Sequence record: PV469800.1
Length of the DNA: 64,000 nucleotides
Source of the DNA: Escherichia phage HMD-P10
Strand: one strand, 5' to 3'
Below the pieces are notes generated by a model. That model was given only the letters and a program-made list of their open reading frames with translations, did not search any database and was not told the DNA's origin. The translations under genes were made by a program, and so were the position numbers. Positions within the stretch are counted from its first letter, which is position 1, and every line of letters starts with the position of its first letter. Shown here piece after piece: positions 53,715 to 53,845 of the stretch.

Positions 53715-53845
53715 CAGAAGACCGTTTACAGCAAAACTTAAACAATCTATTTCTCGGTAAAGAAAAGGCGAAGGTTCGATTCCTTCACTCGGCAGATGTC
53801 GAGTTGGTGTAATGGTAGCACTTAAGATGACAAACAACGGTCTGG
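53715..53845 (+). ncRNA. stem-closed RNA with internal permuted tRNA-like module (YrlA-like candidate)
   Basis: termini AGACCGTT/AACGGTCT pair; inside: T-arm GAAGG-TTCGATT-CCTTC, 3' acceptor ACTCGGC, 3-nt turn, 5' acceptor GTCGAGT, D-arm GTG-TAATGGTAG-CAC. Confidence 0.4.

Follow-up and report, generated by a model that had tools for sequence, protein, structure and literature searches.

Escherichia phage HMD-P10 (sequence record PV469800.1) carries within its tRNA array a 136-nt element, here called E4, that is likely to be a phage-encoded, two-module Y-like noncoding RNA (ncRNA), in which a handle, putatively for a Ro60-fold protein, is joined to a circularly permuted tRNA body that would act as adaptor or decoy. 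We analyzed a 64,000-nt stretch of this genome, hereafter termed the window, to which all coordinates refer. E4 is one of four paralogs (E1 to E4) in a family of handle RNAs that has not been described before, is widespread and is linked to Ro60-fold proteins of the DUF2828 type; RNA and protein probably assemble into a particle that is likewise new. Particles of Ro60 with Y RNA have been reported in animals, in ~5% of bacteria and in a few phages, and came to light through searches beside TROVE-annotated genes. Our data suggest that a Ro60-fold clade that is far larger and divergent in sequence also has putative RNA partners; these have another handle and interchangeable cargo that includes tRNA mimics in both circular permutations. 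E1 to E4 provide defined RNAs of this clade for binding, structural and knockout work.

E4 combines a terminal handle with a permuted tRNA-like module

The source phage is a Felix O1-type myovirus, and positions 53000–54000 show 97–98% identity to many Felixounavirus genomes. ARAGORN placed 26 tRNA genes on the plus strand between 52877 and 57900, followed by terminase and portal genes. E4 sits in a 454-nt gap of this array, between the end of a tRNA-Asp gene (53541) and the start of a tRNA-Lys gene (53995), and ARAGORN called no tRNA between these two positions. The Rfam tRNA model RF00005 scored E4 at 14.9–15.7 bits, compared with a gathering score of 29, and aligned to its T arm only.

In the minimum free energy (MFE) fold, the ends of E4 form the handle, made up of an outer stem of 3 bp (UAC/GUA), next to it an AGA/G internal loop and then an inner terminal helix, AGACCGUU/AACGGUCU (Table 1). 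Enclosed by it are a V hairpin, a T arm, a capped acceptor-like hairpin and a D arm; base-pair probabilities reached 0.85–1.0 in the T arm, the acceptor-like hairpin and the inner stem. A 4-bp helix, CUUA/UAAG, takes the place of the anticodon stem, with the tRNA-like body on one side and the terminal helix on the other; it is not conserved beyond Felixounavirus and is missing from the alignment-based consensus (alifold) structure. The initial annotation had placed the element at 53715–53845 and read the order T arm, acceptor strands and D arm. This order is borne out by the sequence and by the unconstrained MFE fold, with the V hairpin (53746–53768) to be added upstream of the T arm, while the bounds move to 53713–53848 owing to the outer UAC/GUA stem. 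The acceptor is capped, as described there, although by the 4-nt loop AGAU (53794–53797) instead of a 3-nt turn, and the anticodon-stem position assigned there to the terminal helix belongs to CUUA/UAAG. With an AGAU cap and no CCA, the E4 copy is not aminoacylatable, as had been concluded.

Covariation supports the structure across distant phages

E4 is held at a coverage of at least 80% in ~245 phage records. The initial annotation had proposed RNAfold or R-scape on phage homologs; when 11 Ounavirinae orthologs were folded with RNAalifold without guidance, the same five helices were recovered with compensatory changes in the acceptor hairpin, in agreement with the MFE fold. Every helix is kept in the orthologs from Felixounavirus, Suspvirus and Mooglevirus, although the acceptor hairpin has been rewritten and appears as ACUCGGC/GUCGAGU, ACACGU-UACG-GCGUGU or ACCCUUC/GAAGGGU. 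Inner and outer stems of the handle covary as well, both among paralogs and across phages.

From the 11 Ounavirinae E4 sequences only, we built a covariance model, R1, and applied it to distant viral contigs that had been fetched solely for encoding a homolog, 39–46% identical, of the neighbouring Ro60-like protein. Full-length matches were obtained in unrelated contigs (L046, 64 bits; L024, 60 bits; L069, 56 bits; E values of 1e-9 to 1e-11) and further matches in L086 and L045, with MFE folds of the matched regions showing the E4 layout. Klebsiella phage FBKp34 (50.6 bits) and Mycobacterium phage Faith1 (45.5 bits) also carry E4-like copies detected by R1. In a 24-row alignment that includes phages with the 39–46% identical protein, 99.1% of cells are paired versus 37–42% in slid controls, and both partners change in 23 of 26 base pairs, a level reached by none of 500 shuffles; the alignment was fitted to the model, which somewhat favours the structure. 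All seven acceptor pairs covary in it. The initial annotation would have given up its proposal had the acceptor strands lacked conserved pairing; the pairing is conserved.

The same substitutions bear on the strand opposite E4, where an open reading frame (ORF) of 76 codons (53712–53942, minus strand) exists and is annotated as a hypothetical protein in several GenBank records, for example AYO145A_047. That it is a real gene is scarcely conceivable: it is broken into pieces of at most 47 codons in Suspvirus and Mooglevirus, a 1-nt indel shifts its frame within Felixounavirus, substitutions track base pairing and not codons, and it runs antisense to every neighbouring gene. We rejected it as a gene because its frame is not conserved. 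GenBank relatives label 53712–53942 on the minus strand inconsistently, as that hypothetical protein, as nothing or as a tRNA, the last appearing as tRNA-Thr (REP5/REP10) or 'putative tRNA pseudogene' (LTH02); none carries an ncRNA label. Handle RNAs in general are absent from Rfam and from GenBank annotation, most records having no feature there, a spurious ORF on the antisense strand or an unusual 'tRNA'.

Table 1 Features of the handle RNA system in the window.
Feature	Position	Strand	Composition	Basis or remark
E1	53044–53121	+	GAC-AGA-AGACCAA-UUACAGCAA ... UUGGUCU-G-GUC	Repeat families D9/D14, fold, R1 41 bits
E2	53211–53275	+	UGC-AGA-AGACCGU-AUGCAGCAA ... ACGGUCU-G-GCA	Repeat families D9/D14, fold, R1 39.6 bits; between tRNA-Met and tRNA-Asn
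E3	53626–53704	+	AGC-AGA-AGACCAA-AUACAGCAA ... UUGGUCU-G-GCU	Repeats, fold, handle pattern; 8 nt 5' of E4
E4	53713–53848	+	Handle RNA with permuted tRNA-like module, 136 nt	MFE fold, alifold, covariation
E4 handle, 5' side	53713–53726	+	Outer stem UAC (53713–53715), internal loop AGA (53716–53718), inner strand AGACCGUU (53719–53726)	
E4 handle, 3' side	53836–53848	+	Inner strand AACGGUCU (53836–53843), conserved G (53844), outer GUA (53845–53847)	Repeat family D14; G completes CUG
Single-stranded motif	53725–53734	+	UUUACAGCAA	CAGCA invariant throughout handle family
Junction helix, 4 bp	53737–53740 / 53823–53826	+	CUUA/UAAG	Pair probability 0.74–0.78
V hairpin	53746–53768	+	Core UUUCU/AGAAA	MFE fold; CUAU (YUAY-like) just before
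T arm	53770–53786	+	GAAGG-UUCGAUU-CCUUC	Double changes in 4/5 pairs across family
Capped acceptor-like hairpin	53787–53804	+	ACUCGGC-AGAU-GUCGAGU (strands 53787–53793 and 53798–53804; cap 53794–53797)	7/7 pairs with compensatory changes
D arm	53806–53822	+	(G)GUGU-AAUGGUA-GCAC(U)	D loop AAUGGUA; preceding U53805 is U8 equivalent
Gene for Ro60-fold protein, putative partner	51296–52711	+	471 aa	HEAT-repeat ring and C-terminal vWA domain; DxSxS...T...D MIDAS motif (metal-ion-dependent adhesion site)

Handle RNAs accompany a Ro60-fold protein gene

Common to E1 to E4 is the handle (A)AG-stem-UUACAGCAA ... stem-CUG. Its outer stem covaries among the paralogs (GAC/GUC in E1, UGC/GCA in E2, AGC/GCU in E3 and UAC/GUA in E4) and its inner stem alternates between AGACCAA/UUGGUCU and AGACCGU/ACGGUCU; the tRNA-like module occurs only in E4. 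E1, lodged between tRNA-Glu and tRNA-Met, is conserved in Suspvirus and Mooglevirus, and the outer stem of E2 changes from UGC/GCA to UAC/GUA in Mooglevirus. Scans of the window with Rfam at gathering and E-value thresholds assigned no family to E1 to E4.

The putative protein partner is encoded ~1 kb upstream of E4 on the same strand, its gene ending at 52711. It is a Ro60 'ortholog' at the fold level only: Pfam matches comprise DUF2828 and DUF7788, with no match to TROVE (PF05731) or vWA_Ro60 (PF25045), and a phmmer search against PDB sequences found no Ro60. Gp220 of mycobacteriophage Bxz1, used as a positive control, matched both Ro60 families. Clustered at 50% identity, the protein family amounts to 5,810 clusters; among phage records it turns up in 709, a part of which bear the label 'Ro-like RNA-binding protein', and the DUF2828-type family is also present in giant viruses of protists. 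Going by its Pfam description, it presumably extends to eukaryotes, and DUF2828 genes are mentioned in plant papers. A literature search returned nothing relevant on DUF2828, the ACAGCAA motif or Felixounavirus transcriptomics.

The exact Ounavirinae handle string is absent from the distant loci, and we therefore turned to the covariance model and to a degenerate pattern. In its strict form, the pattern consists of AG, a perfect stem of at least 6 bp, 2–4 nt, CAGCA, the complementary strand within 230 nt and then CUG. Across 65 distant loci and the window (729 kb), it occurred 72 times on the gene strand versus seven times on the opposite strand, and 46 of 54 distinct handle copies lay within 1.5 kb of the Ro60-like gene. 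Handle stems vary in nearly every lineage, with CAGCA, the U before it and the 3' CUG unchanged. Handles flank the gene not only in FBKp34 and Faith1 but also in Listeria AG20, Campylobacter F371, Sinorhizobium phiM12 and Staphylococcus 6ec phages; in AG20, three short copies lie 74–337 nt upstream of the gene, in F371 a single one lies 21 nt upstream and in 6ec copies come right after the stop codon. It is chiefly because this linkage spans host phyla that we regard the handle as the putative binding site of the protein.

Such an arrangement raises the question of whether handles are cis signals, that is, autoregulatory untranslated region (UTR) sites of the Ro60-like mRNA or punctuation for processing or stability of the tRNA operon. 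The handles are always on the gene strand, they often abut the gene, as in the AG20, F371 and 6ec phages, and E1 and E2 fill tRNA–tRNA spacers with margins of 4–9 nt. We nevertheless consider a cis role unlikely, since E4 lies 1 kb downstream of the gene, past two promoter-like sites and six tRNAs, an E4-like copy in L046 lies 2.9 kb downstream, and the copies are multiple, with intricate cargo that varies between them and includes tRNA mimics. A cis site, too, would require that the same protein bind it, and in that respect this reading overlaps with the proposed Y-like role.

The cargo is modular and occurs in both circular permutations

As in Y RNAs, the handle is constant and its cargo variable. 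The simplest members have no cargo or a small hairpin and measure 50–63 nt in total; others carry the YrlA-like V-T-acceptor-D module of the E4 type or longer structured inserts. In L069 (7326–7431), a handle surrounds a normal-order tRNA body composed of a D arm, an anticodon arm (loop CUUUUAA, anticodon UUU, Lys-type) and a T arm, the handle stem replacing the acceptor stem; the Rfam tRNA model matched at 55.7 bits over model positions 5–66. Two units in L045 (6895–7018 and 7025–7140) have normal tRNA topology, perfect 7-bp acceptors and encoded NCCA (Rfam tRNA, 56.9 and 40.9 bits), with the handle present as a capped hairpin in place of the anticodon arm. They are followed by a permuted unit (7149–7293), so that a single phage contains both permutations. 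In FBKp34 (L093, 4503–4616), the D arm and the anticodon stem of an annotated 114-nt tRNA-Asp(GTC) are separated by a handle-like insertion, the hairpin AACUUCU-UAG-AGAAGUU-UUACAGCA; the molecule may be a real tRNA tagged with a handle.

Many permuted relatives retain NCCA at the start of the acceptor loop, such as Moogle GCCAAACA and L086 GCCACUGU, which indicates an origin from tandem handle-bearing tRNA-like units. Other acceptor caps are AGAU in E4, UACG in Suspvirus and Sf15, and GUAA elsewhere. These remnants bear on two alternatives. In the first, E4 would be functionless debris, produced when the 3' half of a decayed tRNA became joined to the 5' half of the tRNA after it in a tandem array. 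E4 does lie within a 26-tRNA array, Chen et al. warn that tandem tRNAs can imitate YrlA (PMC4201824), NCCA persists in many relatives and the tandem units of L045 are readable either way; this pattern probably describes how E4 originated. As an account of the present element, however, we judge debris to be improbable. Its acceptor strands pair and covary at all seven positions, the cap has shrunk to tetraloops (AGAU, UACG, GUAA), and the handle that encloses these parts persists in phages of different phyla, where it goes with one protein gene. Debris would not keep five helices intact at 39–46% protein identity.

In the second, E4 would be a permuted or split tRNA gene whose ends are joined and whose cap is opened to yield an aminoacylatable tRNA-like molecule. 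Precedents include the L045 relatives with normal topology, perfect acceptors and NCCA, the 114-nt tRNA-Asp of FBKp34 with its handle insertion, and the Mycobacterium smegmatis YrlA, which is opened by RNase P and then given CCA. For E4 itself we find this highly improbable: it has neither an anticodon arm nor CCA, its cap is only 4 nt long, the Suspvirus and Sf15 versions are capped by a UACG tetraloop, and no RNA ligase or RNA-repair gene was seen among the larger window ORFs scanned.

A putative mechanism and the points that weigh against it

In the proposed two-module RNA, the first module is the handle formed by the 5' and 3' ends, the candidate binding site of the 51296–52711 protein, and the second is the circularly permuted tRNA body, which would present the elbow and acceptor shape of a tRNA while lacking both anticodon arm and CCA end. 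E1 to E3 have the same handle with other, shorter cargo. All four would be co-transcribed with the tRNA array, for which the promoter-like sites at 52730 and 52821 presumably serve. The narrow spacer margins of E1 and E2 suggest release by the cuts that free the flanking tRNAs, probably by RNase P and at 3' ends. By analogy to Ro60/Y RNA particles, in which the Y RNA, docked on the Ro60 ring, serves to tether or gate PNPase and other effectors (PMC4201824), the handle would dock E1 to E4 on the phage ring protein, and the cargo would choose the partner. The tRNA mimic of E4 might then recruit, or serve as a decoy for, a factor that recognizes tRNA shape, candidates being an exoribonuclease such as PNPase, a tRNA-processing or tRNA-modifying enzyme and a tRNA-directed host defence nuclease. 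Members with Lys- or Asp-type anticodon arms (L069, FBKp34) would, speculatively, fit a role as decoys or in substrate presentation.

A possible biological context comes from Felixounavirus Bas63, in which the Ro60-like gp130, encoded directly upstream of tRNA genes, counters ppl defence (preprint, PMC11482910). The authors of the preprint, who identified no RNA, offer the speculation that Y RNAs might be among the annotated tRNAs (PMC11482910). Given that the Felixounavirus protein acts as an anti-defence factor, the handle RNAs are a concrete molecular candidate for this phenotype. The outcome of the proposed mechanism could be that phage RNA and the tRNA pool are protected or serviced during infection or that host defence is blunted, the latter in line with the gp130 phenotype.

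Several observations weigh against the Y-like reading of E4. Its folding energy is unremarkable (z = −0.82) and not significant alone, so that the case rests on comparison with relatives. Read from the sequence, the equivalent of the Levitt pair is A15/C48 and thus not maintained. The YrlA motif GNCGAAN0-1G, considered the Ro60 contact by Chen et al. (PMC4201824), is not present, as there is no CGAA in the 5' region at 53713–53740 (UACAGAAGACCGUUUACAGCAA). The Rfam YrlA model RF02553 (gathering score, 69 bits) gave no match at E ≤ 10 on 53705–53855 (151 nt) or on 53540–54000; of the two search outcomes predicted by the initial annotation, silence of tRNA finders thus held for ARAGORN and the Rfam tRNA model, and a YrlA model match on E4 did not. 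In some phages, handle RNAs lie in a possible 5' or 3' UTR of the gene, where a cis role is possible. The orthology of Bas63 gp130 with the 51296–52711 protein was inferred from the synteny described in the paper alone. Lastly, a Felixounavirus contig, L011 (IMGVR_UViG_2706796742), has a deletion that takes out most of E4, a 144-nt RNA downstream of it and most of tRNA-Lys, which makes E4 dispensable in that isolate and accessory rather than essential. This natural deletion (~7454–7560) joins the T loop of E4 to that of tRNA-Lys(UUU), a rearrangement in the tRNA array driven by T-loop homology.

Further elements of the tRNA array and of related loci

Between the Ro60-like gene and the first tRNA, the plus strand at 52710–52850 contains two copies of a 27-nt repeat, each with TTGACA; of the two promoter-like sites mentioned above, the one at 52730 overlaps a 12-bp hairpin. 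A separate, repeated hairpin, AAGGGUUCUUACGAGUAUCCUUUAA, occurs on the plus strand in two gaps of the tRNA array, at 53598–53622 and 56792–56816, in copies that are 84% identical. The first copy stands just 5' of E3 in a structured 87-nt stretch (z = −3.5). Directly 3' of E4, positions 53847–53990 (plus strand) encode a 144-nt RNA with a 24-bp closing stem (MFE, −50 kcal/mol; z = −5.6) that is kept in Suspvirus and Mooglevirus, where this stem has undergone compensatory changes. Inside the RNA, the hairpin CAGAC-CUUAAGCAA-GUCUGG (~53941–53962) resembles a minimal closed handle, and the 144-nt RNA may be a fifth RNA of the handle system. In Listeria phage AG20 (L089, 4575–6455), the Ro60-like gene with its three upstream handle RNAs is located 1.2 kb from genes for an RtcB-type 'tRNA splicing ligase' and a metal-dependent phosphohydrolase, recalling the bacterial rsr-yrlBA-rtcBA arrangement.

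Comparison with YrlA, Y RNAs and permuted tRNAs

In YrlA, the order V, T, acceptor-like hairpin and D is enclosed by a helix of the termini (Chen et al. 2014, PMC4201824). E4 has the same permuted order and terminal helix, matching both the RF02553 consensus structure and the published description (PMC4201824). It is likewise encoded on the same strand as, and within ~4 kb of, a gene for a Ro60-fold protein and accompanied by shorter sibling RNAs (compare YrlB). Its V hairpin and CUAU are comparable to the 'V' arm and YUAY of YrlA, and some E4 relatives keep a 7-bp acceptor with NCCA like that of M. smegmatis YrlA. The two differ in that E4 has the handle (A)AG-stem-UUACAGCAA ... stem-CUG instead of the GNCGAAN0-1G motif, a DUF2828/DUF7788 partner instead of a Pfam TROVE/vWA_Ro60 protein and a location within a tRNA operon, and in that its type of handle also frames non-tRNA cargo and normal-order tRNA bodies. 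YrlA itself receives psi55 from TruB and dihydrouridine from DusA and assembles with Rsr and PNPase (PMC4201824).

RF02553 does match two relatives in the E4 family, L024 (38.2 bits) and L086 (40.9 bits), with E values of ~1e-5 and below the gathering score; in a control, Bxz1 YrlA, which lies beside a TROVE/vWA_Ro60 protein gene, was matched at 32.5 bits, a comparable score that also falls below it. Conversely, R1 scored only 9.7 bits on Bxz1 YrlA, and the two RNA families are therefore not joined at the sequence level from the R1 side. The resemblance to YrlA noted initially thus holds for architecture and genomic logic and fails for the RF02553 match and the GNCGAA motif: E4 is not a sequence-level YrlA member, and its tRNA-like module probably shares ancestry with that of YrlA. 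E4 is best read as a Y-like RNA with a different handle, putatively serving a divergent Ro60 clade.

Circular permutation is also known from the permuted tRNAs of Cyanidioschyzon merolae and the permuted two-piece transfer-messenger RNA (tmRNA) of alpha-proteobacteria. The E4 family shares this feature and has both permutations (L045). Those RNAs, however, mature to adaptors with an open CCA end and, for tRNAs, an anticodon, while E4 has neither. With no anticodon arm and an AGAU cap that provides no CCA-yielding junction, E4 does not qualify as a permuted tRNA gene.

In canonical Y RNAs (metazoa; Deinococcus Yrn1) and in Yrl1 and Yrl2 of Thermus phage phiLo, paired ends likewise form a protein-binding stem, putative in E4, with an internal loop or bulge, followed by a variable effector module. 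These RNAs differ from E4 in using a GGUCCGA or CGAA motif and a TROVE Ro60, and no tRNA-like domain is described for the phiLo Yrls (PMC12135203). The phiLo Ro60 (phiRo60) assembles with the phage Yrl RNAs and host PNPase in vitro (PMC12135203).

Resemblance to Dictyostelium Class I RNAs

Among the scans with Rfam, RF01414 gave weak, nonsignificant scores for E3 (15.3 bits) and E4 (14.5 bits), compared with a gathering score of 41.5, which led us to compare features with the Class I RNAs of Dictyostelium. Class I RNAs are abundant and developmentally regulated, were considered unique to dictyostelids and have a mechanism that has been unexplained for twenty years. They start with AAG and have a covarying 6-bp terminal stem with an 11-nt CCUUACAGCAA after its 5' strand; their 3' end is CUGU, in which C is paired to the 5' G, and their length is 42–65 nt (Kjellin et al. 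2021, PMC7919456). The phage handle has the same AAG start, a covarying terminal stem of 6–8 bp, the motif (CC)UUACAGCAA directly after the 5' strand and the 3' CUG(U), with short phage forms of 50–63 nt falling in a similar size range. E4, which reads AAG-ACCGU-UUACAGCAA ... ACGGU-CUGG, has the features of the Class I motif.

For a noncircular test, we built a model from 20 D. discoideum Class I sequences only and searched 768 kb of phage loci. Of the 38 nonredundant matches (E ≤ 10), 19 lay on the strand of the Ro60-like gene and no more than 1 kb from it, a zone that makes up 9.3% of the search space (binomial P = 1.4e-10, overstated because the loci are not all independent); two matches were found in the same zone on the opposite strand. 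Single phage matches were weak, with a best E value of 0.017 and 7–8 bits for E1 and E4. Class I RNAs differ from the phage elements in being eukaryotic, in having RNA polymerase III-type genes with a DUSE promoter and no tRNA-like cargo, and in that their sole known direct binder is Rnp1A, a protein with an RNA recognition motif. A motif search for a Dictyostelium DUF2828 protein in the truncated proteome files that supplement Kjellin et al. returned an unrelated vWA protein only.

The phage elements thus share a motif with Class I RNAs and not membership in that class. We tentatively raise the possibility, to which we give less than even weight, that the handle (A)AG-stem-UUACAGCAA ... stem-CUG(U) is the recognition element of a second, hitherto unnoticed Ro60/Y-RNA branch built on DUF2828/DUF7788 proteins, with Class I RNAs as its eukaryotic members. 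If so, E1 to E4, the permuted tRNA mimic included, would be viral counterparts of Class I RNAs, which in turn would be predicted to bind a DUF2828-type Ro60-like ring. With a signature in common between the two groups, the question of Class I function becomes directly testable.

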